The notes: a model not told the origin generated them from the letters alone. 64,000 nt of DNA from Halodesulfurarchaeum sp. (GCA_034520565.1 JAXHNL010000002.1:1280001-1344000), one strand, 5' to 3'; numbered from the stretch's first letter, positions 4,767 to 21,177 are shown. Program-made: numbers and translations.

Positions 4767-5273
4767 CTACGCCCGATACTGTTCGGTCGCCCGCACCACC
4801 GTTTCGAAATCAGCCGGGGAGTAGGCGATGAACGAAACCCGTTCGAGGGAATCGGGGTCGTACTCGGCGATCGTCTCGCCGATAATCGCGGCCCCCTCGT
4901 CGAGCGAAAACCCGGCGACTCCACATCCCAGCGCGGGGATGACCACCGACTCACAGCCCAACTCGTCGGCCGCCTCGAGGGCGTTTCGCGTCGCGTGTTC
5001 GATGCTCTCGGCTGTCGCCTTCCCGTCGCCGTAATGGGGCATCGCGGCCGCGTGTACGACGTACTTCGCGTCGAGTTCGAACGCATCGGTAACGGCCACG
5101 TCCCCGAGTTCGGTCGGCCCCTGTTCGACTGCGGCCTTGTTGATCGGCCCGCTTGCCCCACGACGCAAGGCGCCGGCGACGCCCGATCCCATTCGAAGGC
5201 TCGTCCCCGCCGCGTTGACGAGACAGTCCGCGGACTGTTCGGCGATGTCCCCCTGGATCACCTCGAAGTCCAT
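4767..5273 (-). CDS. Macro domain (ADP-ribose-binding) protein
   Basis: QGDIAEQSADCLVNAAG..GSGVAGAL, VVHAA, PALGCGVAGF. Confidence 0.9.
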   Translation of the reverse strand: MDFEVIQGDIAEQSADCLVNAAGTSLRMGSGVAGALRRGASGPINKAAVEQGPTELGDVAVTDAFELDAKYVVHAAAMPHYGDGKATAESIEHATRNALEAADELGCESVVIPALGCGVAGFSLDEGAAIIGETIAEYDPDSLERVSFIAYSPADFETVVRATEQYRA

Positions 5274-5321
5274 ACGAACTATCAAAAGCCGCTCGATAAA
5301 GGAAGTTACCCGCGACCCGCG

Positions 5322-5777
5322 CTATTCGTAGAGCCAGGCTTCGTCGATTCGCTCGTAGGACTCGAGTTCGTCCGAGTCGAAGAACAGTTCGATCTCTCGT
5401 TCTGCGGATCCCGGTTCGGTGTCCGAGCCATGAATGACGTTCCGGCCGAGGTCAAGCCCGTAGTCACCGCGGATGGTGCCCGGTGCCGATTCGGCGGGGT
5501 CGGTTGCGCCCATCATCGTCCGAACCTGGGCGATCGCGTCCTGTCCCTCCCAGACCATCGCGAGCACGGGGCCCGAGGTGATGAAGTCCGTGAGGTCTTC
5601 GAAGAAGGGTTTGTCCTCGTGTTCGGCGTAGTGCCGTTCGGCGAGTTCCTGATCGATCTGCATGAGCTTCGCCCCGACGAGCTTCAGGCCGCGGTCCTCG
5701 AATCGAGAGACGATCTCGCCGATGAGCCCTCGCTGGACGCCGTCCGGCTTGACCATCACGAAGGTGCGCTCGGTCAT
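5322..5777 (-). CDS. ndk: Nucleoside diphosphate kinase
   Basis: [28 protein letters not shown]. Confidence 0.96.
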
Positions 5778-5953
5778 TCTTCGTTGTCCTGGCCGGCCCA
5801 TTCGACGTCGCGGGATTCGCGTCCCATGCCGGCGTTTTTCTCGCACTTCGAGGAGCAGAAGTACGTCGTCTCGCCGTTCTTCCTGACGTACATCGTGCCG
5901 GTCCCCTGATCGATTTCGTCACCGCAGTAATCACAGGTGCGTGTCCGTGGCAT
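5774..5953 (-). CDS. rpl24e: 50S ribosomal protein L24e
   Basis: [25 protein letters not shown]. Confidence 0.95.
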
Positions 5954-6177
5954 TATTGACCACCGATCGAGTCGGCTTCGCGGGCCGTCTCGCGAAGTTG
6001 CAAGACGTCCCCGACCCTGACGGGGCCGAGGGCGTTTCGCGTGATGATGCGGCCCTGGTTCGACCCTTCCTTGATTCGACACTTCACCTGCATGGCCTCG
6101 CCGTGCATGCCGGTTTTCCCGACGATCTCGATGACCTCGGCGGGTGTCGAGCCTTCAGTCGATTCCTCGGCGCTCAT
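5953..6177 (-). CDS. rps28e: 30S ribosomal protein S28e
   Basis: [36 protein letters not shown]. Confidence 0.95.
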
Positions 6178-6179
6178 CG

Positions 6180-6542
6180 CTATTGCAGGTCCTCGATTTT
6201 GGTCGCGATGTCTTCGACGTCGGCCTCGGCGTCACCGTCCTCGACGATAGCGGCTGCCGCGCTTCCGACTTCGAGGCCACAGGCGTGACCGATGTCGTCC
6301 TGGGTGTCGACGAAGACACACGAGATCCCCTTCTCGTCGGCGAGTTCGGGGAGGTGCATGACGATCTCCTCGGGGGAGACGTCCTCCGCGACGAAGACCA
6401 GTGATGCGTTGCCGCGTTCGACGGCCTTCGTCGTCTCGTTTGTCCCTTTCTTGATTCGTCCGGTGTCTCGGGCGACCTCGAGGGCCTCGAGCGCTCGGTC
6501 CTGGAGGTCGGCTGGAACGTCGTAGTCTACGTATACTGGCAT
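6180..6542 (-). CDS. rpl7ae: 50S ribosomal protein L7Ae
   Basis: [28 protein letters not shown]. Confidence 0.96.
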
Positions 6543-6630
6543 AGTGGATCACCGTTCCCACAGAGGGGCTTTCGCTCCCCCGCCGTTCGATCCTGAGGCT
6601 GGAAGCATCATCGACCCCTGTGAGGTGTAT
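6543..6630 (-). promoter_or_regulatory. Structured rpl7ae 5' leader with K-turn-like element
   Basis: TATA-like TTTTAAG at ~6651-6657 on minus strand; CACAGGGG/CCCCUCUGUG outer stem and UGCUUCC/GGGAGCG inner stem flanking a GAUGA internal loop. Confidence 0.55.
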
Positions 6631-6746
6631 TGCTGAGTCGGCACCCCGTGCTTAAAAGCGTGTCCAAACGGGGGAGGGGCGGACAGCAATCGGGAAGACG
6701 GATTGCGAGGGAAACGCCCTTGCCCGACCGCATGCAAGTGACGGCG

Positions 6747-9005
6747 ATGGACTGGCAGCCGATTCAGGAACTTGTCCGGGAAGCTGCCAGTCACGACGAA
6801 CGCCGGCTTCTCGTGCTCGCCGGCGAATCGGGGCACTCCGAAGCGGTCCGTGGAGCCCTCGAAGCCGCGGATGCTGCGTTGGGCGACGGTTCGATATTCG
6901 ACGATTCGACTGTCGTTGGGCCTCCGTCGGGACTCCCCTGTGATCACCTCGCTCCAGACGACGTGGGCCAGCTGCTCGGCACGACGCGAACGGCAGTCGT
7001 TCTCGACTGTCGGGCGGCCTGCCGACCGAACGACCTCGGGCAGGTCGTCGGGGCCGTCGACGGTGGTGGGCTACTGGTCTTGTTGACGCCGCCACTCGGC
7101 GACTGGCCCTCTCGACGCGACGAGTTCGACGAGACACTGGCTGTCCCGCCGGACACCGTCGATGCCGTCACGGGCCACTTTCGCGACCGTCTGGTCGAAA
7201 CGCTCACCGTTCATCGGGGCGTCGCCATCGTCGACCTCGACGCCGACGAATTCGTTCGCGACGGGCTGACGGGACAGGCACCACGACGGGATCCTCCGCC
7301 GATCGAAACGCCAGCCGGGACGGAAGCGATTCCCGATCCACTGTTCGAGAGCTGTCTCACCCAGGATCAGGCCGACGCGCTCGCGGACCTCGCGGCGCTC
7401 GCGACCGGACCGACGGCAGCCGTACTCGAAGCCGATCGGGGACGCGGCAAATCGAGCGTAGCTGGCCTTCTCGCCGCCTGGTTCGTCGCGAGAGGGGAGC
7501 GAGTCGTGGTCACCGGGCCGAGCCGGTGGGCCGCAACGGCATTCTTCGAACGGATTCTGGAGGTCCTCCCGCCCCTCGATGGCGTCCGATCCGTCGACGG
7601 TTCACCGCCGAACCGGATTGTAGCCGCGAGCGGCGGCGAGATCGAGTTCGTCGCGGCCCAGGAAATGGAGTCCAAACTGGAATTGGCTGCCGTCCTCTTC
7701 GTCGAAGAGGCCGCCGCCCTCCCCGTCGCCCTGCTCGAATCGACGCTCTCGGTCCCGCGTGTTGCCTACACCACGACGGTCCACGGGTACGAGGGATCGG
7801 GCCGGGGGTTCGCGGTCCGGTTCCGCGACAGCCTCGCGGCAGCCCGTCACGACGTTCTCGATATCACGCTCGCCGAACCGATTCGCTACGCTGGTGGCGA
7901 CCCGGTCGAAGTGTGGGCCGCACGGGCGCTGCTGCTCGATGCCTCACCGGTTCCAGGCTCGCTGATCGAGGACGCCAGACCGGAGACGGTGAGGTATCTG
8001 GGACTCGATTCCGAGACGCTCCGTCGGGACGAACAGTTGCTCCGGGAGGTGTTTGGCCTGCTCGTGACGGCCCATTACCGGACCGAACCCGCGGATCTCG
8101 CCAGACTGCTCGACGGGTCGAACCTCGCCGTCCGGGCCCTCCTTCGGGACGGACACGTCGTTGCCGTGGCCCTAATCGCCCGGGAAGGGGGTCTTCCGCC
8201 CGAGACCCTCGAACGCGTCTCGCTCGGCGAGCGAATCCGGGGCAACATGCTCCCGGACGTTCTAATGAGCCAGTTACGGGACGAGGACGCCGGGCGGTTG
8301 GTCGGTATTCGGGTCGTTCGAATCGCCACCCATCACGCGGTTCGGTCACGGGGGCTGGGAAGTTACCTGCTCTCCAACGTCGAGGACGAGTTCGGGCCAG
8401 TTGTCGACTGGATCGGGACGGGATTCGGTGCGACCCCCAAACTCGTCTCCTTCTGGCAGGCAAACGGCTACGAGCCGATCCACCTCTCGACGAGCCGCAA
8501 TGAGCGCAGTGGGGAACACTCCGTGCTGATGCTTAAGCCCACAGCCGACCCCGGGAATGTCCTCGCCGACGCACATGGGCGTTGGTTCGGAACCAGAATT
8601 GGTGGTGTCCTCCAGGATTCACTCGAGGATCTCGACCCGGACGTCATTCGCGCAGTCCTGGACGCGGGCACTCACCCTCCGTCGTTGGCATTTTCGCCTC
8701 ACCGGTGGCGGGTCATCGCCGGCGCAGCCTTCGGTCCCGGCCTGTACAGCGTCGACCCAGAACCGTTTCGCACGCTTTCCCTCCACGGACTCGTCGATGG
8801 TGCGGTGGATCTGTCCGATCGGGAGGAGCGACTGTTGGTTCGCGGCCTGCTACAGGGGCATTCCTGGGATCGAGTCGCGGACGAACTCGATTTCGTCTCC
8901 GGGACCGCGGCGATGCGGGCCTTCGGGCGAGCGCTGCAACCGCTGGTCGAGGAATACGGTCCAGAAGCACTCGACACGTATCGGACCCGCTTCGAGTCGG
9001 CGTAA
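6747..9005 (+). CDS. tmcA: tRNA(Met) cytidine acetyltransferase
   Basis: ADRGRGKSS Walker A, EEAAALP, TTTVHGYEGSGRGF, AHYRTEPADL, GNAT RVVRIATH..RSRGLGS. Confidence 0.93.
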   Translation: MDWQPIQELVREAASHDERRLLVLAGESGHSEAVRGALEAADAALGDGSIFDDSTVVGPPSGLPCDHLAPDDVGQLLGTTRTAVVLDCRAACRPNDLGQVVGAVDGGGLLVLLTPPLGDWPSRRDEFDETLAVPPDTVDAVTGHFRDRLVETLTVHRGVAIVDLDADEFVRDGLTGQAPRRDPPPIETPAGTEAIPDPLFESCLTQDQADALADLAALATGPTAAVLEADRGRGKSSVAGLLAAWFVARGERVVVTGPSRWAATAFFERILEVLPPLDGVRSVDGSPPNRIVAASGGEIEFVAAQEMESKLELAAVLFVEEAAALPVALLESTLSVPRVAYTTTVHGYEGSGRGFAVRFRDSLAAARHDVLDITLAEPIRYAGGDPVEVWAARALLLDASPVPGSLIEDARPETVRYLGLDSETLRRDEQLLREVFGLLVTAHYRTEPADLARLLDGSNLAVRALLRDGHVVAVALIAREGGLPPETLERVSLGERIRGNMLPDVLMSQLRDEDAGRLVGIRVVRIATHHAVRSRGLGSYLLSNVEDEFGPVVDWIGTGFGATPKLVSFWQANGYEPIHLSTSRNERSGEHSVLMLKPTADPGNVLADAHGRWFGTRIGGVLQDSLEDLDPDVIRAVLDAGTHPPSLAFSPHRWRVIAGAAFGPGLYSVDPEPFRTLSLHGLVDGAVDLSDREERLLVRGLLQGHSWDRVADELDFVSGTAAMRAFGRALQPLVEEYGPEALDTYRTRFESA

Positions 9006-9077
9006 TTGGGTCCGGAGTCCGGGGCAGGGAGCGGATATCCCTTTCAATCCACAACTGGTGACAGTTTCTAACTTCCT

Positions 9078-9104
9078 TGCTGCATACAACGCGCGTATCT
9101 TGCA
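9078..9104. repeat. 27-bp imperfect palindromic site 1 (putative recombination site, spacer class A)
   Basis: TGCTGCATAC-AACGCGC-GTATCTTGCA; 25/27 identical to 11154-11180. Confidence 0.75.
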
Positions 9105-9290
9105 TGAGTACGCTATTTCTCGTCGGGCTTTCGTCCTGACAGTCGTCATGACGGTAAGGTACGTCGGCTGACGGGCAAACGACCGTCGGTGTACTCGCAG
9201 GCTGGGTCGGTCCATTCCACGAGGGGCTGCTGGCGCGCCAAGCCACAGGGTCAGATCTCGGTCGCACCGAGGCCGCAGCGGCCGTTGTCC

Positions 9291-9872
9291 TCAGCCCGGT
9301 TGGGGCCTGACCTGCCGGCCGACGAGTACGAGACTGCCGACGAGCAGGGTGACCGAGACCGGCAACAGTAACTGAAACGCAGTCAATAGCGTGCTCGACG
9401 CTTGGATCCCCAGCATGATCAGCACCACCGGGCCACAGCAGGCCGTCCCCGAGAGCAGCGCAGGAATACTCGCGAGGAACCCGCTCGACGAGCGGCCGAT
9501 GCCGCAGGCCTTGGGCTGCATCCACACCAAATAGGTCAGCGCGAGGTTCAGCCCCACTAGCAGGGCGATGGAACCGCCAAGCACGGTATTGAACGAGAAC
9601 AGGTAGGTGATTGGGCCGACGGTGACCCGGGCGATTGGCGTGAACATGAAGGGACCGAGTTCGGGCTGCAGGAACTTACCGAACGGGTCGGCGATGACCG
9701 TCATGCCGGTATTACCGAGGCCCGTGGCGAGATGATTGATCATCCAGAGGTAGACTGACAGGTAGACGGCCGACACAGCGCCGAAAACGACGGCGGCGTC
9801 GCGGCGGCGGAGCGCAAACATGGTGGCAGTGTGTGTCCGCCCAAACGCGGTCCGGACGCTGGCGACTGACAT
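9291..9872 (-). CDS. Membrane protein with ACG and ACCGP motifs
   Basis: Several hydrophobic segments, LLSGTACCGPVV motif; starts 1 nt after the DUF3179 stop. Confidence 0.75.
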   Translation of the reverse strand: MSVASVRTAFGRTHTATMFALRRRDAAVVFGAVSAVYLSVYLWMINHLATGLGNTGMTVIADPFGKFLQPELGPFMFTPIARVTVGPITYLFSFNTVLGGSIALLVGLNLALTYLVWMQPKACGIGRSSSGFLASIPALLSGTACCGPVVLIMLGIQASSTLLTAFQLLLPVSVTLLVGSLVLVGRQVRPQPG

Positions 9873-9873
9873 G

Positions 9874-10990
9874 TTACGCATAGGTGGTGGTCCCTGGATA
9901 GTAGCCCGCCCAGGCAAACCACATCGCGTCAAAGGTGTGGATGTGCGTGAGCGAGAGTGCGTCCGGCGCGTGGTCGGCCCCGTCCGGCCCGACGACCGTC
10001 CCGTCGTCGTATTCGAACGAGATCCCGTCGGGGTTTTCGTAGATGTAGGCCGTATCTAATCGATCGTCGTAGATGGCCACGACCGGCGTGTCACCGAGTG
10101 CGCCCGTCATGACGTGCTGGTCCCGGATGGCGTCCTTTCGGAAGGCCACGGCGCCGTCGGGTGCCCGCGCGCCCATGACGACAGTTTTGTCTTCGAATGT
10201 GTCCGGCCCCTCAAGCGAGGGGAACATTCCACCGCCGCTCCGGTAGTACCCCCCGAGGGGATTGTAAGAGCCGTAGGGATCGTTGCCGTAGTTCCTCGCG
10301 GAGCCGGTGTCCGTCGAAAGGACGCGCGTGTCGGGGTGTTGGGTCCGCCACCGGTCCCACGTGGTCCAGACGAGCCGGAACTCGCGCAACGAGTGGGTCC
10401 CCGGCGACGCGTTCCAGGGCCCCGGAATCGAGGTGGCCAGGATCTGGGGCCACCACGTTTCCGTCGCGCGGTCGTACATCACGAGGTTGTTGTTGATCAG
10501 CCGGCCGGAGACGCCGAAGGTCGTCGTCCCCCGCTCGAACCCCAGGACGGTTCCCGTAAGGGGGCAGTAGGTCACGCTCACCGGTTCGTCCCCGAGGGTA
10601 TCGTTGACGATCTCGTGCTGGGCGAGGATTTTCTGGGCGTAGACCTTCGTCTCGCCGTTCCGGACCACGCCGAACACTGGGTCACCGGGGTCGAGAAAGT
10701 CGACCGCGGACGGGTCGATGAACTGCGGGTCATCGATCGACGGGATGCCGTCCTTGGGTGGGCCACCGGACCGGGCCGCATCTCGGAGTTCGACGGGCGC
10801 CATTGGCAACGGGAGCTGTCGATCCGCCGTCGGTACCGCCGGCGACCCGTCTCCGGACTCTGATGGAGCCTGGGCAGACCCCGTTCGGTGTCGGCGTCCC
10901 CTGTTCCGGTGTATCCCTCCCGCTACTACATCCGGCAATCGCCGTGATACCTGCCACGGCGAGGAACTGGCGACGAAAAATGTGATTCAT
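9874..10990 (-). CDS. DUF3179-family Tat lipoprotein (one frameshift at ~10880)
   Basis: N-terminal FRRQFL..AIAGC Tat/lipobox in one frame; SGGPPKDGIPSID, HEIVND..VTYCPLTG, FGVSGRL..NLVMYDR in another; frames join at the G4 run at 10879-10882. Confidence 0.82.
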
Positions 10991-11087
10991 ATTATAAGAT
11001 TGGCGCTCTATCAGTTAACGGTTACACCAACGTGTGACATCTTTACACACTCGATGAAGCGTAAGGTATTCCCTTTCAGGAACACAC

Positions 11088-11114
11088 CGCTGACTACAGC
11101 CTCTACATCTTGCA
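11088..11114. repeat. 27-bp imperfect palindromic site 2 (spacer class B)
   Basis: CGCTGACTAC-AGCCTCT-ACATCTTGCA; downstream ~28 nt also resembles the sequence after site 4. Confidence 0.65.
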
Positions 11115-11153
11115 GTCGGTTTCTGACAACCTCTGATTAGATCTCACGGAGCG

Positions 11154-11180
11154 TGCTGAATACAACGCGCATATCTTGCA
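11154..11180. repeat. 27-bp imperfect palindromic site 3 (spacer class A)
   Basis: TGCTGAATAC-AACGCGC-ATATCTTGCA. Confidence 0.75.
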
Positions 11181-11463
11181 AAGCAATCGCTGAGCGCAGT
11201 TCGAAATGATGCCAAGTCTTGGAGATCAAGAACTTATAATTGCGAATCATGCTCTCCGGCTTCTTCCACTCAATAAAATCTCCGAAACTCTCGATTATCC
11301 TCGTAACTTTCCCAGTTTCGTACGCAATCATTTCCAAAATTATCGATATTTGTTTCGTCTCATCGTTCGGCCGATCGAAGTCTACCACTTTGAAGTGGAA
11401 CTCCACATCTTGGTCTCGAATTCGATTGTGTCGCTACCCGTCTCGATTTCAGATACTAGAATG

Positions 11464-11708
11464 GGCCTTGTTTAGACGCTAGCGAAAGACGCTCTAAGCG
11501 CGGTTTCGATAGTGAAAATCGGGAAAATGTATTGAGTGTGTACGTCGAAAGCCGAGACAGGAGAGCGGTAGAACCCGGGCAAAACCCGCTAAATTGGCCG
11601 GATGGTCTGAATCGGCTCCAAGATGTCGCGGTCCTTGTCCGACTGTCGATGGTTGACTTCGGCAGGGGCGGCGTTCATACAGGTGAATTCAAGCGTCTAA
11701 ACACGGCC
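11464..11708. mobile_element. 245-bp MITE related to the IS5-family element at 15251-16234
   Basis: TIRs GGCCTTGTTTAGACG / CGTCTAAACACGGCC; flanks CTAGAATG / CAAGAATG (8-bp TSD, 1 mismatch); no transposase. Confidence 0.85.
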
Positions 11709-11772
11709 CAAGAATGACTAATGGGCAGGTTCTCGGAAAAACTATTAACTATTAACCAGTTATTACCAGCCT

Positions 11773-14700
11773 ATGGACGAGGAAATCCAATCGAGACTTT
11801 TTCTGGGGAATAAAATAACCCGACGTAACCTTCTTCGGTCTACAACTGGTGCGTTTCTATTTTTGAACTCGCCCCTCGTTTCGGCTGCTTCTGGCACCAG
11901 TACGAATAGAACTAGTAAACAATTGAAATTAGACGAAAATTCACAGATCACGAAACCGTCCTATCTTCCGTATCCATCTGATCCTTTTATATTGGGTCAA
12001 TTTGCAGACCAATATTTGAGTTCTACCGACCGCCAGGGATGGGAGCCAGTGCCGATAAATGAGGAGATCCACACCCTTCTTCGTTTGCACTTGGATGTCC
12101 TTGATAGTGCTCCACTGGCATCGTTTGAAAATGGTGAGTTACTTCCCAACTCCTCTGCTTCCAATGCACTCGACTTTTCGCTTCGAACCGACGTGCCCGC
12201 AACGGCGGGTCGAAATACCACGATCGAAATGGGTCGCGTTGAAGAGGGGTCCATGGAACCAATCCTGTCAGAACACGATTGGACGCAACCAAATGGTGAG
12301 CCTGTCACGTCCGTTTCGGAGAATCTAGCGGAGACGATAGCGGGCGAAGATCAGTATATGGAATGGACATTTACTACAAATGGAATTCCGTCTGCATTCG
12401 CACCCCTCGGTTTACATTTGATGATAAAATCGACAACAGAACGACTAGAACAGGGATTTGCTGGGTTTTTTGTAGATATGCTTTTTTTGTTCCATGGGCT
12501 AGATTTCTCTGACTGGGCGACTACTGCCTTCACGAAGCATTTGAGTTCGCTCCCACAAAGCCGTCTCGAAGAACTCGATATAAAAGCTCCTTCAGAATTC
12601 AAGGTGAAGGAGTATTTAAAGCAAGAAAACCTCACACCCGAGTCCGACATCAACCCTCTGGAAGATCCTGTGTTTCGAGAGTTCATCGTTCATAACCATC
12701 TTGGGGTCCGAGAGTTCTTTGCGGACTATCGTGACGCTGTATCAGGGTCTTTTCCGGACCGTAGCACAGCAGATGAGATTGCCCTCTGGGCGAACCAGTT
12801 CGTCGGGAGTTTATACAATCCCCAGGCCGTCAATGTCTATGTATCCGACTTTCTCGATCTGATTAACACAGAACATTTCCCCACGGTCAACGAACCCTCA
12901 GACCACAAATATAAACTCTTAAAGGCAAACGGCCGATTCTCGAAGCCTGTTATCGCCAAAGCGACGATAACCAAATCACCCGGCTCTGAGGAATATCCCG
13001 GATTTGACCCGACAAAGTCATATCCAATGCTCCAAAGGTATCAGGTCGCTGAGGCCTTCGCAAATGGTGCACGCCTGAAGATACCATTGTCCCCACGTGG
13101 AGCACACTCTACAAACGAGTCAATCACTCAGTGGATTCAGGCCGATGGAAATGTCCCCTCCGAATTGCAAGAGTTCATCGATTTTGTTTGGGCCCACAAA
13201 CGATTCCTAACCGATGAGGAGCCGAACCACCCGGTCGCCGTCATTTGGTCTCTCCCCGACCGAATGTTCCGGAAACTTCCACAATGGGATATTGAGCCAA
13301 GAGAGCAGTCACAATCGGGGGTGTCTTCGTTCAATGGAACGACTACGCTCCTCCGTGAGGCCCAAATTCCATACACTGTGCTCACATTTGGACACCCAAG
13401 ACTTTGGGAGGACACCGATTTACTCGAAGGTCTACAGGAGTATGAAGTGATCATCCTCCCCAATGTCCGCTCCCTCTCGGAGGCCCAACTATCTGCACTT
13501 TCCGATTACGTAGACCAGGGCGGGCACCTGGTCGCAAATGGTCAAACGCCAGATAGAACTGCAAATTTCGCCCCTCTAAATAATCTCGATGGGCTCTTCG
13601 AGAAAGATAGAGCAATCGTTCTATCGGGAGACCCAGGCTCATATCGGGAGGAGAAGGGTCAGGCAAAGGGATCCCTTTATTCTGAACTTGAGAAAATTGA
13701 TGTCAACCCAATAATACCGAACGATAATACCAGCCTTAGCGTTAATATTCGGCAACAATCTGAAAATAACCGGACCATTGTACATTTGTTGAATCACGAC
13801 TACTCACGACAAACGGACTCCTTCGACCCAATTAGAGATATCCCGGTCACGGTGCCGAACCTTGGTCACGATGTATCGGCGGTACAGTTCTTCTCGCCCC
13901 AAAAATCGAAAACTCTCGATTTCGAAAGTGGCGGAAATAATATCCAGTTCACGGTTCCAGAAATCGTTGATTGGGGATTCGTCGTCCTTGCGACCTCCGA
14001 ATCCAGCATTTTCCCGACCGAGAACAAAAATGATGCGCAAAAAAAGGTTCAGCAGGCTGAAGAAACACTCGCCAAAGCCACCGACGAAGGATTTGACTGG
14101 TCGCCAGAGTCCACTATCGCTGAAGCCGAACTCGAGAATGCACGGATAGCTTTCGACCACCAGGCGTACGGTCAAGCAGTGGAAGCTGCCGAGGCAGCAC
14201 ATTCCGCAGCCGCCGAAACGACATATCCGCGACCGACGATTGCACTTGACCTCGCGCATTCTCAGTCTTCTTCCTATGACGGTGAGCTACAAGGTGAGCC
14301 ACTTGAAGATCTCAAGAATGAGTTTCAACATTTGGATTATCGACTCATCGATTCGTGGAGCGAGGATGAACTCGCCGATGTCGACGTACTCATCGTACCC
14401 CCAGCATTACGTTACAAGGGAGAAAGTTTTGGCTTTAAAGATAGCGAAATCGACCAGATCGTTTCATTTGTTGAGGGAGGTGGCAGTCTTGCGATCTTGG
14501 CAAGGGGGGCGGTTGCACGGGATATTGATGACCTAACCGAACAATTTGGCTACCGGTTTGACGGGTCCTCAATCCAATTTCCAGAGGGAATAGAAGAGTA
14601 TGCCACGGTCACCGATCCACTTCATCCATTAACACGGGGAGTAAGGCGGTTTTACGTAGATTGGGGAACGCCCATAACGCAGATGCCCGATGATGCAACG

Positions 14701-15147
14701 GTACTCGCCACAGTTGGTAAGGAGACCGGTGCATGGCTACACGACGAAACACCACATGACACCCGCCAAGAAGGAGAGAAATTATTGCAGAAAGACCCGA
14801 TATATGCGGTCTCAAAGCAGGGACTTGGCCGGGTTGCTGTTCTGGGTCAATGGGCGTATTTATACCATGAGGGATTGCACCACTGGAAAGCACTAACCGG
14901 CAATCTCGTTTCTTTCCTCGGGCAATCAGCTGCTGCCACCCAAGCTGAGTCAGTGGAAACCAACCCGACGTCGACCGACGTTTCCAATGAGACTACGGAG
15001 ACCACCCCAACACCGACCGACGTTTCCAATGAGACTACGGAGACCACTGATGAAACTGCTCCAGGGTTTGGGTTTGGGACAGGAATTGCTGGTCTTGTCG
15101 GGACAGGATACTTTCTCCATCGATTACGCGACACAGACCAAGACTAA
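11773..15147 (+). CDS. Large Tat-exported, PGF-CTERM-anchored glycoside-hydrolase-like multidomain protein
   Basis: ITRRNLL Tat signal; GFFVD barrel-like motif; beta-galactosidase trimerisation/GATase-like segment (YEVIILPNVRSLS..YVDQGGHLV); DUF4350/GIFT-like segment (FVEGGGSLAIL); Thr-rich linker; PGFGFG+TM+basic tail. Confidence 0.8.
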   Translation: MDEEIQSRLFLGNKITRRNLLRSTTGAFLFLNSPLVSAASGTSTNRTSKQLKLDENSQITKPSYLPYPSDPFILGQFADQYLSSTDRQGWEPVPINEEIHTLLRLHLDVLDSAPLASFENGELLPNSSASNALDFSLRTDVPATAGRNTTIEMGRVEEGSMEPILSEHDWTQPNGEPVTSVSENLAETIAGEDQYMEWTFTTNGIPSAFAPLGLHLMIKSTTERLEQGFAGFFVDMLFLFHGLDFSDWATTAFTKHLSSLPQSRLEELDIKAPSEFKVKEYLKQENLTPESDINPLEDPVFREFIVHNHLGVREFFADYRDAVSGSFPDRSTADEIALWANQFVGSLYNPQAVNVYVSDFLDLINTEHFPTVNEPSDHKYKLLKANGRFSKPVIAKATITKSPGSEEYPGFDPTKSYPMLQRYQVAEAFANGARLKIPLSPRGAHSTNESITQWIQADGNVPSELQEFIDFVWAHKRFLTDEEPNHPVAVIWSLPDRMFRKLPQWDIEPREQSQSGVSSFNGTTTLLREAQIPYTVLTFGHPRLWEDTDLLEGLQEYEVIILPNVRSLSEAQLSALSDYVDQGGHLVANGQTPDRTANFAPLNNLDGLFEKDRAIVLSGDPGSYREEKGQAKGSLYSELEKIDVNPIIPNDNTSLSVNIRQQSENNRTIVHLLNHDYSRQTDSFDPIRDIPVTVPNLGHDVSAVQFFSPQKSKTLDFESGGNNIQFTVPEIVDWGFVVLATSESSIFPTENKNDAQKKVQQAEETLAKATDEGFDWSPESTIAEAELENARIAFDHQAYGQAVEAAEAAHSAAAETTYPRPTIALDLAHSQSSSYDGELQGEPLEDLKNEFQHLDYRLIDSWSEDELADVDVLIVPPALRYKGESFGFKDSEIDQIVSFVEGGGSLAILARGAVARDIDDLTEQFGYRFDGSSIQFPEGIEEYATVTDPLHPLTRGVRRFYVDWGTPITQMPDDATVLATVGKETGAWLHDETPHDTRQEGEKLLQKDPIYAVSKQGLGRVAVLGQWAYLYHEGLHHWKALTGNLVSFLGQSAAATQAESVETNPTSTDVSNETTETTPTPTDVSNETTETTDETAPGFGFGTGIAGLVGTGYFLHRLRDTDQD
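14972..15047 (+). repeat. Intragenic tandem repeat, 42-bp period (TDVSNETTET x2)
   Basis: CGACCGACGTTTCCAATGAGACTACGGAGACCAC at 14972 and 15014. Confidence 0.9.
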
Positions 15148-15250
15148 CTCCGTATTATAAAACCGCCCTGGGTAATTTACCAACGCGTACTAAGTAAAGA
15201 GCAATTTCCTTTCGCAATCCCAAGAAAGTATTTGCTGAATACATCCTCTG

Positions 15251-16234
15251 GGCCTTGTTTAGACGCCTGATTTCACCGGTTTGAACCCTCAAACGCGCGT
15301 TCGATGTTTCGGACCGCGGATTTCATGACAAGTTCACGGAATTGGCCGAACCAGGTTCTCGACCAGAGCGTATCTCCGTATCTGCGTCGGAAACCGAAAA
15401 ACACCGATTCAGCGTTTGAACGTTGGTGATACGCCCGATCATGGATAAGCAAATTTCTCGCCCATCCTCGCATTCCAGGATCTCGCTGCGGAATCAGCGG
15501 TGTGATACTTTCCGCACGCAACCGTGTTCGAAGTTCCTCCCAGTCGTAGCCCTTATCCGCCGCGACAGTGCCTAAAACGTCGAGATTCCGCACTAGCACT
15601 TGCCAGCCGACCTGTGTATCGTGCGGTTGTTTCATCGAGCAATGTATATCTAGGATTGCACTTGTCTTGCAATCGATAAGTACTGACGCTTTGACCGCTT
15701 CAAATGTGTAGTCGGTTCGTTCGGCGTAGTGCTGGCTAGCTTGGACGCGATCAACGCCGGTCGCATCGATTGCCTGCACCTCGCCGAGCTCGTATAGATC
15801 GACCGAAAAATCGAGCATTGCTCGCCACCGCTTCATCGGAATCTCTTGCTTTCTCGCGCAAACAGTCGAGAAGTGTGGTAGCGTCTCAGGCGGTTAAACC
15901 AAGTAATATTCGCGACTTTCGGCATTTCTCGCAGTACATCCATCAGCTTCCGGTAATCGTGGTGATCAAGATACTCTTTCAGTCCCTGAATAGCGAGAAT
16001 TACCCAGTCGGCATAGCCATATTTTCCTGGTCGAAAAGCCGGATCTGGCCGACCAACGACGGCTTTTTGTGCGAGCGATACCACCTTCTTCGTGAAGCGG
16101 GCGGTCTTGGTTAGCACATCAAAACCGACCCGCTTCACTTCCTAGTAATTTTGGTAATTCTTTAGAGTTACTAGAACCCTGATAATGGTGGTACAAGCTC
16201 TAGTCTGCTCGAATTTGATCGTCTAAACAAGGCC
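15251..16234 (-). mobile_element. IS5-family (ISH1-like group) insertion sequence, 984 bp
   Basis: Perfect 15-bp TIRs GGCCTTGTTTAGACG; 9-bp TSD CATCCTCTG at 15242-15250 and 16235-16243; DDE transposase inside. Confidence 0.92.
15273..16138 (-). pseudogene. IS5-family transposase, frameshifted near 15905
   Basis: AIDATG, ADKGYD, YHQRSNAESVF DDE motifs in ORF 15273-15836; N-terminal part (ARFTKKVVSLA..YRKLMDVLREMP) in ORF 15833-16138. Confidence 0.85.
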
Positions 16235-16299
16235 CATCCTCTGTATTCAGCAGTCCGGTTCTATCAACAGCTGAATAAGCCACTCGAAATTCCGCTGCA

Positions 16300-16884
16300 T
16301 TGGCACAGTTATTTCACTCCCAGACCATCCCCTCCTACGGAACTTCTTCTCGCCCCTCGAAGGTATCCAATCCGCTCACGAACCGGCCCGAACCCTTTGT
16401 CGTTCGAACCGAATATGCAATTGTGTTCGGCAACCCGACCAGCCGACTGGACCGACTCCAACACACGCTCGCCTTCGCGAACACGCCCGAAGGACGCAGA
16501 ATTGTCCTCTGGCGGCGGATCGCAGCGCCACCGGAGCGAGTCTGGGAACTCCTCGTCGACACCCGCCGGTGGCCCGAATGGGGGCCGAGTGTGCTCGACG
16601 TCGAAACCCAGTCCCGTCGAATCGAGACGGGATCGACCGGTCGAGTTCGAACGATCTTCGGGCTGTGGCTCCCATTCACCGTCACGAGGGTATCCGAATG
16701 GGCCTGGGCCTGGCGAATCGGCCCGGTCGAGGCAACTGGGCATCGGGTTATTCCAGGCGACTCCTCGTGTCGGGTCGGGTTCGAGGTCCCCCTGTACGCG
16801 GTTCCGTATCTCATCGTCTGTTGGTGGGCGCTTCGTCGGATCGAGTCGCTTGCAACAACGGCCGCTACTGACAACACAGATTGA
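16300..16884 (+). CDS. SRPBCC (START-like) family protein; true start probably ~16423
   Basis: IAAPPERVWELLVDTRRWPEWGPSV motif. Confidence 0.75.
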   Translation: MAQLFHSQTIPSYGTSSRPSKVSNPLTNRPEPFVVRTEYAIVFGNPTSRLDRLQHTLAFANTPEGRRIVLWRRIAAPPERVWELLVDTRRWPEWGPSVLDVETQSRRIETGSTGRVRTIFGLWLPFTVTRVSEWAWAWRIGPVEATGHRVIPGDSSCRVGFEVPLYAVPYLIVCWWALRRIESLATTAATDNTD

Positions 16885-16945
16885 CCGGAGCTTGTGAGGT
16901 GGGAGACGTGGAACCGAGCAGGGAGACGGCAAAACAGCGAGGTGA

Positions 16946-18700
16946 CTATGGGTGGGTGAAGTACGTGACAGTCTCGTCGTCCGTTCGGCCATCGATCCGG
17001 GCGAAGCCGATCCGCTCGAACTGGACGACCTCGTCAGCGTCGTGATCCTCGAGACCCGGCTCGGCCCGACCGGTCACGATCCCATCCATCGTGTGCATCC
17101 GAACCGGGACCGACGCCGCGGCCGACACCCAGTGGATCACGTCGACGCCGCCCTCGGTGACCACGTCGAGGTCGTCGCGGGTCGCAACTAATTTCTCGCC
17201 GGCCAGGCGAACGGCTCCGAATCCCTTGAGCCAGACGCGTTCGCCCTCGGGTGGCAGATCGTCGACCTCCAGCAGCACCTCGTCTCCGACGGGGATTTCG
17301 CGGACCCCCCGCTCCTCGTGGTCGGGATGCAGCGGCGGGTTCGCGACGTCCGGACCGCCCTCGATCGGGAGGGCGATTGCTTCCAGCGCTGCGGGGTCTG
17401 CGGTTGGATACGGCTCGATCGACTCGCGGACGAGGAAGCGCCGATCGGTCTCGTCGTCGATCAGTTCCCGATTCCGGGCGTAAACGGTGCTCATCGAGAG
17501 GTCGACGTTGCTCGTCGAGGTGCCGAGGCCGATCATCGCCGAGACCAGGGCTTCCCCCTCGATTCCCCGGCGTCGAACACTCTTGATCGTGGGGGCGCGT
17601 GGGTCGTCCCACCCGTCGAGGTCGCCCGCGTCGATCCGCTCCTTGATCGTCGAGGTGCTCATGGAGACGTCGTAGTCCTCGACCTGAACGTGCCCCCAGT
17701 GGATCACTTCCGGGTACGTCCAGTCGAAGTACTCATAGACGAAGCGCTGGCGCTTTTCCGAATCCTGGAGGTCGATCCCCCGGATGATGTGTGTTACTCC
17801 TGTCAGGTGGTCGTCGATCCCGGACTGGAAATCGAGCATCGGCCAGCAGCGGTACTCGCTCGCGGCCTCGCGGGGGTGGGGCGTGTCGATCATCCGGAAG
17901 GCGACCCAGTCCCGGAGCGCCGGGTTGGGATGCTCGATGTCGGTTTTTACCCGGAGGACCATCTCGCCCGGGTCGTACCCGCCTTTGACCATTTCCTCGA
18001 ACTCCTCGCGGACCGCCGCTGGGTCTTTCCCCCGGTGCTCGCAGGGTTCGCCAGCGTTTTTCAGCTCCGAAAAGGTCTCGCCCGCACAGGAGCAGGTGTA
18101 GGCACCGCCCCGCTCGATGAGGGCCTGGGCGTGCTCGTAGTAGGTTTCGAGGCGATCGCTCGCCCGGATCACGTCGTCCGGCTCGAATCCCAGGTACTCG
18201 ATGTCCGAGAGGATCTGACCGTAGGCCTCGAGGTCGGGGCGTTTCGTTTCCGGATCCGTGTCGTCGAAGCGGCAGAGAAACGAGCCGTCGTATCGGTCCT
18301 TGTAGGTCCCGATCACGGCCGGCATCCGGGCGTGCCCGAGGTGCCAGGGTCCGTTCGGGTTCGGGGCGACTCGCATTCGGACCTCGCCGGGTTCGGCGTT
18401 TGGCAGATCCGGGAGTGCATGCTCGTCTTCGTCGTCTTCGGTCTCGAGTTCCTCGATGGCCTCGGGGTCGAGTTCGGCGAGGCGGTCCCGCTGTGTGTCT
18501 CGATCGAGTTCGTTCACCCTGGCGACGACCGGGCCGCCGATTTGCGGGATTTCGTCCCCGTGTTCGCGGAAGACGGGGTTCTCTCCCATGAGTGGCCCCA
18601 TTATCGCCCCGATCTGGGCGTCGCTCTCGTGTTTGAGCGCGTTGTGGAGGGCGTGTTTTTCGATTTCCCGTTCGATCCGCTCCCGAAGCTCGTCGTCCAT
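16946..18700 (-). CDS. gltX: Glutamate--tRNA ligase
   Basis: RVAPNPNGPWHLGH (HIGH-like), RFDDTDP, THIIRGIDL, MSTS. Confidence 0.95.
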   Translation of the reverse strand: MDDELRERIEREIEKHALHNALKHESDAQIGAIMGPLMGENPVFREHGDEIPQIGGPVVARVNELDRDTQRDRLAELDPEAIEELETEDDEDEHALPDLPNAEPGEVRMRVAPNPNGPWHLGHARMPAVIGTYKDRYDGSFLCRFDDTDPETKRPDLEAYGQILSDIEYLGFEPDDVIRASDRLETYYEHAQALIERGGAYTCSCAGETFSELKNAGEPCEHRGKDPAAVREEFEEMVKGGYDPGEMVLRVKTDIEHPNPALRDWVAFRMIDTPHPREAASEYRCWPMLDFQSGIDDHLTGVTHIIRGIDLQDSEKRQRFVYEYFDWTYPEVIHWGHVQVEDYDVSMSTSTIKERIDAGDLDGWDDPRAPTIKSVRRRGIEGEALVSAMIGLGTSTSNVDLSMSTVYARNRELIDDETDRRFLVRESIEPYPTADPAALEAIALPIEGGPDVANPPLHPDHEERGVREIPVGDEVLLEVDDLPPEGERVWLKGFGAVRLAGEKLVATRDDLDVVTEGGVDVIHWVSAAASVPVRMHTMDGIVTGRAEPGLEDHDADEVVQFERIGFARIDGRTDDETVTYFTHP

Positions 18701-18773
18701 TATGGGATGGGACTCGGCGGGCAAGCAAAGTGGTTGGGATTTTCCCCGTCGTCTCGATCACCGAGGGACATCC

Positions 18774-19827
18774 TCAGTAGGACCGTTCGATGAGGTAGGT
18801 TCCGATCTGTTTCAGTCGCTCTCGGGCCTCGTTTTCGGGGAGTGTGTCGAGTTCCTCGGCGCCCTCTGCGATGAGGTCGGCGGCGAGATCCTCGGCGTAG
18901 GCGATCGACCCGGCCTCCTCCAACGTTTGGACGGCCGCGTCGATTTCGGCGTCCGTCACGGCATCCGGGTTTGATCCCTCTATCAGGGTGTCAACGTCGA
19001 CTCCCTGTTCTTTCGCGTGTTGTGTGATGACCGTCCGTTTGCCCTCGATCAGGTCGCTTCCACGGGTTTTCCCGAGTGTCTCGCTCGATGTCGTCAGATC
19101 GAGGACGTCGTCGTAGATCTGGAAGGCCTGCCCGATCGAGCGTCCGTACGCTGAAAGGGCGTCGACGATTTCCTCCTCGGCGCCCAGCAAGACCGCTGGA
19201 ATCGAGGCGGAGGCGGCATAGAGGACGGCGGTTTTCCGGTCGACCATGTCGAGGTATTCCTCCGTGCTGACGGCGTCCCGGGTCTCGAAGTCCACGTCCA
19301 GGGACTGGCCCTCGCAAATACGGGTGCAGGTCGAGGCCAGCCGGTCGATCGCCTCGAGCCCTCGGTCCGACGGCGCCTCGCTCTGAAGCATGATCTCGAA
19401 GGCCTTCGAATAGAGCGTGTCGCCGGCGAGAATGGCCGTATCCGAGTCGAAGGCGACGTGGACGGCCGGTGCCCCACGGCGCATCCCGTCGTCGTCCATG
19501 ATGTCGTCGTGAATCAGCGTGAAGGACTGGATGACCTCGACGCTCACCGCCGCGGCCAGAAGGTCTATCGGCTCCTCCGTCGGGCACCGTCGTCGGGAAC
19601 TCCCGGTAGCATTCGGTTCCCGGGACGGTATCCGTGACTGCTTCCCCGGCGACCAGCAGAATCGTCGGGCGAAGGCGCTTCCCGCCGGCTTCGAGCAGAT
19701 GGCGGGACGCCTGGTAGAGTCGCTCCGGGTCCGCGATCGGGAGGTAGGTGTCGATGTGGTCGTTGACGATCTCCCGCCGGCTCGCAATGGCCTCCTCGAC
19801 GGTCGCAGCACGCACCTCGGGTTTCAT
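18774..19827 (-). CDS. idsA: Geranylgeranyl diphosphate synthase (frameshift at ~19585)
   Basis: GGKRLRP in one frame; LIHDDIMDDD and FQIYDDVLD in the next. Confidence 0.9.
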
Positions 19828-19828
19828 G

Positions 19829-21177
19829 TCACTCGACGAGTTGGATCCTGTTGCCGTTGCGGGTGATGTGGAGGTCACGCCCGACGCGGTAGCCCTCCGA
19901 TTCGGCCAGACTCACGTAGGGTGCGTACCCCTCCATGTCCTGGTGGGCCGGAATGACGTGCTGTGGGTGGAGCGCTTGCAGCATCTGGTAGTGACCCTCC
20001 TGATTGAGGTGACCGGAGACGTGAATCTCGTCGTAGATGCGAGCGCCTTGCATGCTCAGAAGCTTCTCTGCCTGGTAGCGCTGGCCCTCGTTGGTCGGCT
20101 CGGGGATGACCCGCGCCGAGAAGATGACCTTGTCGCCGTCTTCGAGTTCGTAGGGCGTCTCGCCGCGGCCCATCCGGGTGAGCATCGCGCGCGGCTCGCC
20201 CTGGTGGCCGGTGACGACGGGCAGGAAGCGGTCCTTGCCCTCGTTCATGATGCGTTTGAAGGCGCGGTCGACGCTCTTCCGGTGGCCGTACATCCCGAGG
20301 TCGTCGGGGAAGTCGACGAAGCCGAGCCGCTCGGCCGCCCCGGAGTACTGCTCCATCGAGCGCCCGAGGAGGACCGGCTGTCGGCCGATCTCCTTGGCGA
20401 ACTCGACGAGGCTGCTGACACGGGAGATGTGACTGGAGAACGTCGTGGCGACGATGCCGCCGTCGTAGTCCTCCATGGCTGTCGAGCGACGTCCTTGAGG
20501 TGGCGTCGGGCGACGGACTCGCTCGGTGTGCGCCCTTTCTTCTGCGCGTTCGTGCAGTCCTCGATGTAACAGAGGACGCCCTCGCCCTCGCGACCGATCT
20601 CGCGGAACCGCTTCATGTCGATCGGATCCTCGAGGACCGGATCGTGGTCGAGACGCTTGTCGAGTCCGTAGACGATCGCCCCCTCCGGGGTGTGCAGGAC
20701 GGGGTTGATCGCGTCGATGATCGAGTGGGTGACGTGGACGAACTCGAGTTCGAGCCCGTTGCCGATCTCCATCGACTCGCCGCCCTCCATTTTGACGAGG
20801 TCGTTGTCGACGCCGAACTTCTCCTCGCCCTCGATCTGTCCCTTTACCAGTTCGATGGTGTACGGAGACGCCACCACCGGTGCGTTGTATCGGTGGGCCA
20901 GCTTTGAGATGGCGCCGATGTGGTCGAGGTGGCCGTGCGTCGGCACGATGGCCTTCACGTCGCCCTCGAGGTCGGACATCACGCGGTCGTCCGGAATGGC
21001 CCCCATGTCGATGAGGTCCAGACTGTGCATCCGTTCGGTCTCGACGTTGTCGTGGATGAGGACCTTCGACAGGTTCAGGCCCATGTCGAAGATGACCACG
21101 TCGTCGCCGGCCCGCACGGCCGTCATCTGCCGGCCGACTTCCTCGTAACCGCCGATTGTCGCAAGTTCGATTTCCAT
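19829..21177 (-). CDS. rnj: Ribonuclease J, beta-CASP (frameshift at ~20480)
   Basis: [34 protein letters not shown]. Confidence 0.92.

Follow-up and report, generated by a model that had tools for sequence, protein, structure and literature searches.

In cassette exchange of the loxP/lox2272 type, a cassette is flanked by two sites, each of which recombines only with its own kind, and pdif modules are bounded by inverted 11-6-11 sites that neighbouring modules have in common. Here we analyze a 64,000-nucleotide stretch of DNA from Halodesulfurarchaeum sp. (GCA_034520565.1, JAXHNL010000002.1:1280001–1344000; hereafter the window, which is C2:1280001-1344000 of the source genome, G000), in which four related 27-bp sites, S1 to S4, bracket accessory genes. 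We conclude, with moderate confidence, that S1–S4 are duplex core sites for a tyrosine recombinase and belong to a two-class cassette system that extends throughout Halobacteria. Among described archaeal systems, dif is presented in the available text of two studies as a unique 11-6-11 chromosomal site (PMC2958812, PMC5357621), and the integrons of archaeal metagenome-assembled genomes have, in the available text of the report, canonical folded attC sites and IntI (10.1101/2022.02.06.479319); the word 'Halobacter' is absent from the main text of that report, as far as it was available. A 2026 study of haloarchaeal plasmids states, in its available part, that no known Xer site lies near the plasmid xerA genes (PMC13532300), and the word 'cassette' is absent from the available part of a review of archaeal tyrosine recombinases (PMC8371274). 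Our search of the open-access literature turned up no account of such sites or arrays, although some of the sites may have been catalogued earlier under another name, such as PATE (palindrome-associated transposable element) ends.

All four sites lie on the plus strand and have a 10-7-10 layout, with inverted arms flanking a 7-bp overlap (the spacer), which is the architecture of tyrosine-recombinase core sites, as the initial annotation of this DNA had stated. S1 (9078..9104) is a class A site, TGCTGCATAC AACGCGC GTATCTTGCA, scoring 38.8 bits against a position weight matrix (PWM); it forms the left end of the array, with neither a B site nor a 39-bp linker upstream. S2 (11088..11114; class B, spacer AGCCTCT, 29.0 bits) is followed by a conserved 39-bp linker (11115..11153, plus strand) that leads to S3 (11154..11180; class A, spacer AACGCGC, 41.9 bits). 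S4, of class B, is split by an insertion sequence (IS), with its left arm and spacer ATCCTCT at 15233..15249 and a duplicated spacer plus the right arm (GTATTCAGCA) at 16236..16252, the right arm itself being 16243-16252; since the 7-bp duplication ATCCTCT stands on both sides of the 986-bp IS, rejoining the two parts of S4 is legitimate. A search of the 64-kb window with a pattern allowing up to three mismatches returned S1–S3 as sole matches, and the same search gave a match in 0/100 shuffles. The initial annotation had placed four related sites at these coordinates, with spacers alternating A-B-A-B and a gap of 39 bp between S2 and S3, and had S1–S2 bracket a DUF3179 gene with a membrane-protein gene and S3–S4 an AT-richer gene of 1124 amino acids (aa), all of which proved accurate. 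It had also called the sites palindromic; the 10-7-10 layout stood, but palindromy held for the reconstructed S4 only, in which all 10 arm positions are complementary, and not for S1, S2 and S3, in which 7, 3 and 6 of the 10 are. S1–S4 are asymmetric direct 27-bp repeats rather than palindromes, and this asymmetry is conserved.

Analysis of 173 distinct sites from several genomes revealed a mean arm complementarity of 5.5/10 in class A (n = 93) and 6.3/10 in class B (n = 68). The inner four and the outer two or three arm positions were complementary in 52–95% of the 161 classified sites; the middle three were complementary in only 16–36% of sites, yet conserved, reading CGG in the right arms of class A and CT(C/T) in those of class B. 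No pairing was found between the left arms of B sites and the right arms of A sites. When folded as a single strand, the unit made of S2, the linker and S3 gave z scores of −1.0 and −0.9 relative to shuffles, so that the attC-type fold of an integron was not found, and S1 and S3 folded alone gave z scores of +1.6 and +0.7, respectively. S2 reached −2.2 through a short stem within its left half, with no arm–arm pairing.

These data bear on a reading of the sites as single-strand hairpin ends, of the IS200/IS605/PATE or REP/BIME (repetitive extragenic palindrome/bacterial interspersed mosaic element) kind, that are handled by an HUH (Y1) transposase, which we regard as very improbable. Palindromes near both unit ends, a fixed short junction and insertions into palindromes agree with it, by comparison with the elements described in the available text of PMC3119063, as does the position of both IS copies of the source genome within B spacers. 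However, the arms are conserved yet non-complementary, and the composite and two of the three single sites fold no better than shuffles; the gene found between sites encodes a tyrosine recombinase, and the breakpoints fall in the spacer (both described below). No match to Y1_Tnp was found in the source genome, whose assembly is 80.7% complete, and none of its three TnpB genes is near a site of at least 17 bits. The Haloquadratum and Natronomonas elements, as described in the available text of PMC3119063, resemble the present units in having palindromes near their ends, terminal-only derivatives and insertions into palindromes, but here an HUH transposase is absent, TnpB is unlinked, the associated gene encodes a tyrosine recombinase and breakpoints fall within spacers. 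IS200/IS605/PATE was rejected on enzyme, pairing and breakpoints, the comparison being one of described features and not of palindrome sequences.

To define the site family, the PWM was built from 18 sites of the source genome, read by coordinate, and run over its assembly (two contigs, 1.86 Mb in total). The scan revealed 27 positions at 17 bits or more, 18 of them seeds of the PWM; in the reversed genome the top score was 15.4 bits and 0 positions reached that threshold. The hits formed a few clusters, on both contigs, that coincide with accessory gene patches of low G+C content at third codon positions (GC3), and three stood alone (C1:38994, C2:527678 and C2:861962). As anticipated in the initial annotation, they gathered at cassette boundaries and fell into two spacer classes: class A sites read TGCTGAATAC-A..GCGC-GTATCGGTCA or GTATCTTGCA, and class B sites TGCTGAATAC-A..CTCT-GTATCT(C/T)GCA. 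The grammar, with all sites co-oriented, is A site, cassette, B site, 39-bp linker, A site, cassette, B site, in which the B–linker–A composite is a repeated 93-bp unit and S2–S3 is one instance. Eight full composites were found in the source genome (nhmmer E 8e-25 to 3e-15), and others in a congener (G008). Co-oriented B-to-A neighbours lay 64–67 bp apart, start to start, in 4/4 cases in the source genome, 23/25 at loci of G157, 15/16 at two named plasmid loci and 6/6 at loci of G008, and A-to-B neighbours were at least 200 bp apart in 7/7, 27/27, 17/17 (plasmids) and 2/2 cases in G000, G157, plasmids and G008, respectively. The sequence of the window's linker was present in the source genome and 1/11 congeners and in 0/29 other relatives; in a different family (G400) the linker is also 39 bp long, with weakly similar sequence, and one junction in G094 measures 97 bp.

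The accessory modules thus bounded by two site classes support the cassette idea of the initial annotation, although its comparison with pdif layout did not hold, because the sites are co-oriented and paired at each junction (B–39 bp–A) rather than inverted and shared. The pdif modules of Acinetobacter (XerC/XerD; for example PMC6449649) are similar in that Xer-type core sites bound modules in plasmid accessory regions and the recombinase acts in trans. The differences lie in the co-oriented 10-7-10 sites, the two spacer classes and the 39-bp linker that pairs the sites at each junction. As a candidate class for the window, the pdif module was rejected on layout: the inverted, shared 11-6-11 layout was not found, the sites being co-oriented, two per junction and with a 7-bp spacer.

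The cassettes of the source genome carry genes for PAS/GAF histidine kinases, a pyrimidine-dimer glycosylase, PNPOx-like, LiaF-like and CPBP proteins, a helix-turn-helix protein, a glyoxalase and proteins without a family. Histidine kinases of the PAS/GAF type are present in five cassettes (C1:9482-12713, C1:130922-132703, C2:222327-224108 and C2:898651-901350), and sensor kinases seem to be frequent cassette cargo.

The distribution of the sites was analyzed with the pattern TGCTGAATACANNNNNNRTATYNNGCA, allowing up to three mismatches, and with the reversed pattern as a control. Matches were present in 263/301 genomes of the order, including 196/210 high-quality ones, with up to 136 per genome, compared with 0–3 for the reversed pattern, and both the A and B spacer classes recur throughout the genomes of the order. 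The exact 27-mer of the A site occurred in 18 stretches of a species-representative collection, all from Halobacteria and from at least 12 genera, including Haloquadratum, Halorubrum, Haloferax, Haladaptatus, Natrinema, Natronococcus, Natronorubrum, Halovenus, Halopelagius and Saliphagus. The composite was found in 20 haloarchaeal plasmids of PLSDB, with no annotation beneath it, and an exact match to the A site in none of 2.9 million viral contigs. Arrays of G157 contain up to about ten cassettes of 0.35–1.5 kb, each with one small open reading frame (ORF) of low GC3, separated by composites in the same orientation. The site system is order-wide and no local oddity. Separately, a 409-bp stretch shows 89% identity between genomes of different families (G400 L033:452-859 and G000 C1:12952-13358); it adjoins a composite in both and ends off the sites.

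Near-palindromic sequence, intergenic position and conservation throughout the order would also suit operators of a conserved transcription factor. We find this scarcely credible, as sites occur at either end of units, 5' as well as 3', regardless of gene strand, a genome may have anywhere from 0 to 136 of them, the cargo they flank is unrelated, and homology breakpoints lie inside them. The distribution also differs from that of archaeal dif, since there are tens to more than 100 sites per genome, in two classes and at cassette borders. A dif-like chromosomal site conserved at a syntenic position was not found among congeners at either of the two loci tested; the isolated site at C2:861962 was not kept in four congeners, in which the adjacent core gene alone is conserved. 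An integrative mobile element exploiting Xer recombination (IMEX) at a single conserved dif was likewise rejected, as there are several clusters, on both contigs of the source genome, and no syntenic site in congeners. A serine resolvase acting at a res-type site was rejected on the absence of PF00239 from the source genome.

Evidence on how cassettes move came from homology breakpoints in other genomes, which fall inside the spacers, in line with a check proposed in the initial annotation. The clearest example involves three Haloprofundus plasmids. A cassette carrying a gene with a phosphothreonine-lyase domain is 94.7% identical between NZ_CP083664.1 (Haloprofundus salinisoli) and plasmid pMHR1-2 (NZ_MN918442.1). 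[quoted passage not shown] The three-way comparison therefore puts the switch point within the 7-bp B spacer (AACCTCT/ACCCTCT), which is the mark of conservative site-specific recombination. At the left end of the same cassette the switch lies in the A site: the right arm and downstream DNA are common to both, and the left arm, spacer and linker differ, the linker even being of another subtype. The breakpoints at the two ends thus define the exchange unit as running from the right arm of an A site to the left arm of a B site. Similar A-site breakpoints were observed in duplicated blocks of G157, and many contigs in the metagenome of another study follow the window's linker, A left arm and spacer and then diverge at 11171-11175.

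A recombinase gene is linked to the sites in other genomes. In G157, the exact interval between a B site and an A site is occupied by a gene for a 234-aa protein; PF00589 covers residues 28-219, and there is no N-terminal domain. This family is patchy (65/301 genomes) and 80–91% identical across five taxonomic families, which marks it as mobile. Close homologues (at least 66% identity) have a site of at least 17 bits within 110 bp at 16/19 loci, compared with 0/11 loci for distant homologues. Typically, the A site is 46 bp ahead of the start and the B-type site 34–39 bp beyond the stop, and the gene occurs in both orientations. The segment of about 30 bp that separates the stop codon from the B site was compared with the beginnings of 37 distinct linkers, and in 4/6 modules it aligned better than all 200 shuffles; at the level of sequence, the 39-bp linker looks like a recombinase module from which the gene has been deleted.

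This resemblance and the position of the recombinase gene in the B-to-A interval are also what would be expected if the junction were itself the mobile element, a B-int-A form of about 0.9 kb together with a 93-bp miniature, and the cassettes were DNA trapped between its insertions. Linker subtypes common to several arrays agree with such an element, as do the terminal-only derivatives of palindrome-ended elements in Haloquadratum, as given in the available text of PMC3119063. Moreover, of the two copies of a duplicated two-gene block, one contains and the other lacks a 202-bp piece that includes a whole composite and whose ends lie off the sites. However, homology breaks between spacer and arm rather than at the composite's outer limits, array ends are marked by a single A or a single B site, A-to-B segments are foreign, low-GC, patchy DNA, and the entire 7.9-kb interval of the window is an insert. 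In addition, the B and A spacers differ and so are not attL and attR of one conservative insertion. We therefore consider a mobile junction quite unlikely and prefer to read the A-to-B segments as the exchanged cassettes.

By sequence, the 234-aa protein is closest to XerA: among family models XerA_Arch scores highest (50 bits, against a cut-off of 220), XerA 5hxy (E 0.008) is the sole relative with a solved structure, and this affinity, with the inverted arms around a short centre that archaeal dif has in the available text of PMC2958812 and PMC5357621, relates the present system to XerA/dif. Against the integron-integrase model TIGR02249 it reached 20 bits, with scores of 20–31 bits overall versus a cut-off of 265. 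The arrays are similar to integrons in their tandem, co-oriented, short cassettes, which for the most part carry one gene and whose functions vary and are in many cases unknown, in their frequent lack of a nearby integrase and in their use of a tyrosine recombinase. In contrast, two duplex 27-bp cores with distinct spacers stand in place of one folded single-stranded attC, the recombinase gene lies between two cores rather than at the head of the array, cargo occurs on either strand, and the enzyme falls far under the integron-integrase cut-off (20 vs 265 bits). An integron was also rejected as a candidate because no IntI beside an attI was found.

The source genome encodes an XerA-like protein of 337 aa (C2:1456246-1457259), a single-copy ortholog of which is present in 286/301 genomes and in 210/210 high-quality ones, at 60–84% identity. 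The initial annotation had suggested host XerA as a possible mover, and if the sites are pdif-like and worked by this universal enzyme, a dedicated one is unnecessary. Such an ortholog in 286/301 genomes fits the order-wide constancy of the left arm, array-rich genomes without the 234-aa protein exist, the annotations of two plasmids show no integrase within 14 kb of their arrays, and the best family and best solved relative of the 234-aa protein are themselves XerA. Yet XerA is also encoded in complete genomes with 0 pattern hits (G298, G057 and G036), in which a dif of this type would be expected if the pattern were the XerA binding motif. No site is kept at a syntenic chromosomal position among congeners, xerA adjoins no site in the source genome, and the layout, co-oriented with two sites per junction, is unlike that of pdif modules. 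The sole tightly site-linked gene encodes the mobile, Xer-like 234-aa recombinase, and XerA acting as the only enzyme is in our view unlikely.

Other recombinases of the source genome include larger integrases of 423 aa and 380 aa, the latter inside an island of 39% GC, and a short tyrosine-recombinase gene of about 200 aa, with the catalytic domain only, that is broken by TAG (C2:709723-710292; L020:2203-2799); this gene is not close to the 234-aa family and has no site nearby. No integrase gene of the source genome adjoins an array, and blastp showed the integrases of G000 and G157 to be mutually unrelated except for the 380-aa/423-aa pair. The island holding the 380-aa integrase (C2:518000-532000, L005; 39–46% GC) is bracketed by a weak site at 522721 (14.4 bits) and a good near-palindromic site at 527678 (23.6 bits), and may be a larger integrative element using related sites. 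In G157, two other integrase genes adjoin sites or arrays (L037:1885 and L038:2075-3118): one encodes a 436-aa protein with a SAM-like N-domain, beside a perfect palindromic site, and the other a 347-aa protein with a zinc ribbon, immediately ahead of an array. These sites may be used by more than one recombinase family.

The array of the window occupies the interval between two core genes, tmcA (6630..9005, plus strand; Pfam NAT10_TcmA_helicase, GNAT_acetyltr_2 and TmcA_N) and gltX (16946..18724, minus strand; Pfam tRNA-synt_1c), each conserved in 10/11 congeners. The two genes are separated by 52–285 bp in six congeners, so the whole of 9006-16945 (the 7.9-kb interval) is an insert, and the modules are stacked between tmcA and gltX as the initial annotation had it. 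In the nearest relative (G011), tmcA and gltX are separated by a different insert, of 6.3 kb (C10, L023), which shares only a related IS with that of the window; the gap looks like a recurrent insertion spot. The array begins with a lone A site on the left; on the right it ends in a B site, after which come a linker and an A site that have both decayed, and it encodes no recombinase. No Rfam match at E ≤ 0.1 was found over 8500-17500, and no tRNA gene within 5000-20000.

Cassette 1 contains two genes on the minus strand, an ORF for a 213-aa membrane protein (9291..9932) with a weak MerT match under the cut-off, and the gene for a DUF3179 protein (9874..10938; Pfam DUF3179, 300 bits). The best homologues of the latter come from another family (66–68% identity), and it is present in 2/9 sampled congeners at E ≤ 1e-80. 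Cassette 1 may have been captured from an ordinary gene. Cassette 2 contains the gene for a predicted secreted protein of 1124 aa (11773..15147, plus strand; GC 0.50), whose GC3 of 0.49 compares with about 0.8 in neighbouring genes. Its only Pfam matches, GH42M and DUF4350, are weak and all under cut-offs. Homologues were found in 4/400 other genomes of the order and are flanked by sites in 2 of those 4. The protein has a signal-like N-terminal stretch, and its C-terminus reads PGF and then a hydrophobic tail, a putative PGF-CTERM archaeosortase sorting signal of haloarchaea; two 42-bp tandem repeats, rich in Thr and Pro, at 14946-15029 precede the PGF tail.

Upstream of this gene lies a 247-bp MITE (miniature inverted-repeat transposable element; 11463..11709, no strand assigned) whose terminal inverted repeats are those of the IS. 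Cassette 2 also occurs, at about 98–99% identity and without the MITE, in the metagenome of a different study, one contig of which (run X3) runs from 11455 directly to 11709; the MITE insertion is therefore polymorphic. The 986-bp IS (15250..16235, minus strand; DDE_Tnp_1 by Pfam, two ORFs, terminal repeat GGGCCTTGTTTAGACG) lies inside the S4 spacer. Just one further full copy exists in the source genome (C1:132789-133768), also within a B spacer; the two are 84% identical to each other and occupy the same B-spacer position, with duplications ATCCTCT and ACACTCT. In runs X1 and X2, the match of some contigs starts exactly at the B left arm (15233), with different DNA upstream. B sites seem to be a target of the IS, comparable to the attC or REP sequences chosen by some bacterial IS. 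S4 is followed by a degenerate linker and a degenerate A site (16253..16299, plus strand), both weak; nhmmer gave a partial match of 16232-16283 to composite positions 7-58 (E 0.05). Next comes an SRPBCC (Polyketide_cyc2) gene (16300..16884, plus strand; Pfam 36 bits) that is absent from the 52-285-bp gaps of the six congeners and is likely a third, older unit of the insert.

Several observations weigh against a cassette system served by the 234-aa recombinase, in addition to the 202-bp piece described above. Excision or empty-site joints (S1×S3 and S3×S4) were sought in four runs by means of Logan contigs, a form of assembly that drops rare forms, and none was found in the contigs. No site of at least 10 bits was detected in the tmcA–gltX gaps of 8 congener loci, that is, a pre-existing target was not seen. 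None of 13 loci with DUF3179 homologues has a site within 1.5 kb, and in G349 and G027 no sites flank the homologue of the 1124-aa gene. As for the enzyme, no close homologue of the 234-aa recombinase was found in the source genome (80.7% complete), and 10/19 genomes with at least 44 pattern hits, including G240 (136 hits) and G147 (123 hits), gave no match to it at E ≤ 1e-15. Finally, 2/6 B-int-A modules align to linkers no better than shuffles.

We propose that A sites would recombine with A and B sites with B, strand exchange taking place within the spacer, so that a cassette would consist of an A right arm, the cargo and a B left arm. Two neighbouring A sites would release a circle in which the cassette is joined to a B–linker–A composite with its one A site, and this circle could then enter an A or B site elsewhere, same class with same class. 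Alternatively, a double crossover, with one event at A and one at B, would swap the cassette in place. In autonomous copies, the B-to-A interval would carry the mobile 234-aa recombinase, which has an Xer-like catalytic domain only; arrays with the 39-bp linker would rely on a recombinase made elsewhere. The window would accordingly be a non-autonomous array of cassette 1, cassette 2 and probably the older SRPBCC unit, with S4 split later by the IS that targets B spacers. The sites, their grammar and distribution, the breakpoints within spacers and the linkage of the recombinase gene to the sites are observed; the identity of the cutting protein, the circular intermediates and present-day activity in the source genome are inferred.

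A double crossover between heterospecific lox sites swaps a cassette, which fits a unit running from A right arm to B left arm; the lox arrangement is a laboratory design, whereas the present one is natural and order-wide. We raise, as a tentative and rather doubtful extension, that these arrays are a natural 'two-lock' cassette exchange, an independent analogue of the integron in which heterospecific A and B sites swap cassettes between chromosomes and plasmids and across genera. On this extension the catalytic-domain-only recombinase may act jointly with host XerA, and recognition would then be divided as between XerC and XerD, the constant left arm falling to one protein and the class-specific right arm to its partner. 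In Haloquadratum, 'deletion-coupled insertions', in which unrelated DNA stands at exactly the same position in two strains, are left unexplained in the available text of PMC3119063; two-lock exchange, if true, would explain them, and this is now testable.

If the cassette system is as proposed, it would supply a simple sequence rule for cassette borders, which current RefSeq records leave unannotated, and a small recombinase with heterospecific 27-bp sites would be a candidate natural engineering toolkit for halophiles. Haloarchaea are marked by rampant gene exchange, accessory islands and megaplasmids, for which we found no site-specific cassette mechanism in the open-access literature; the system described here, if true, would provide a mechanism for much of the accessory-gene flux of haloarchaea.

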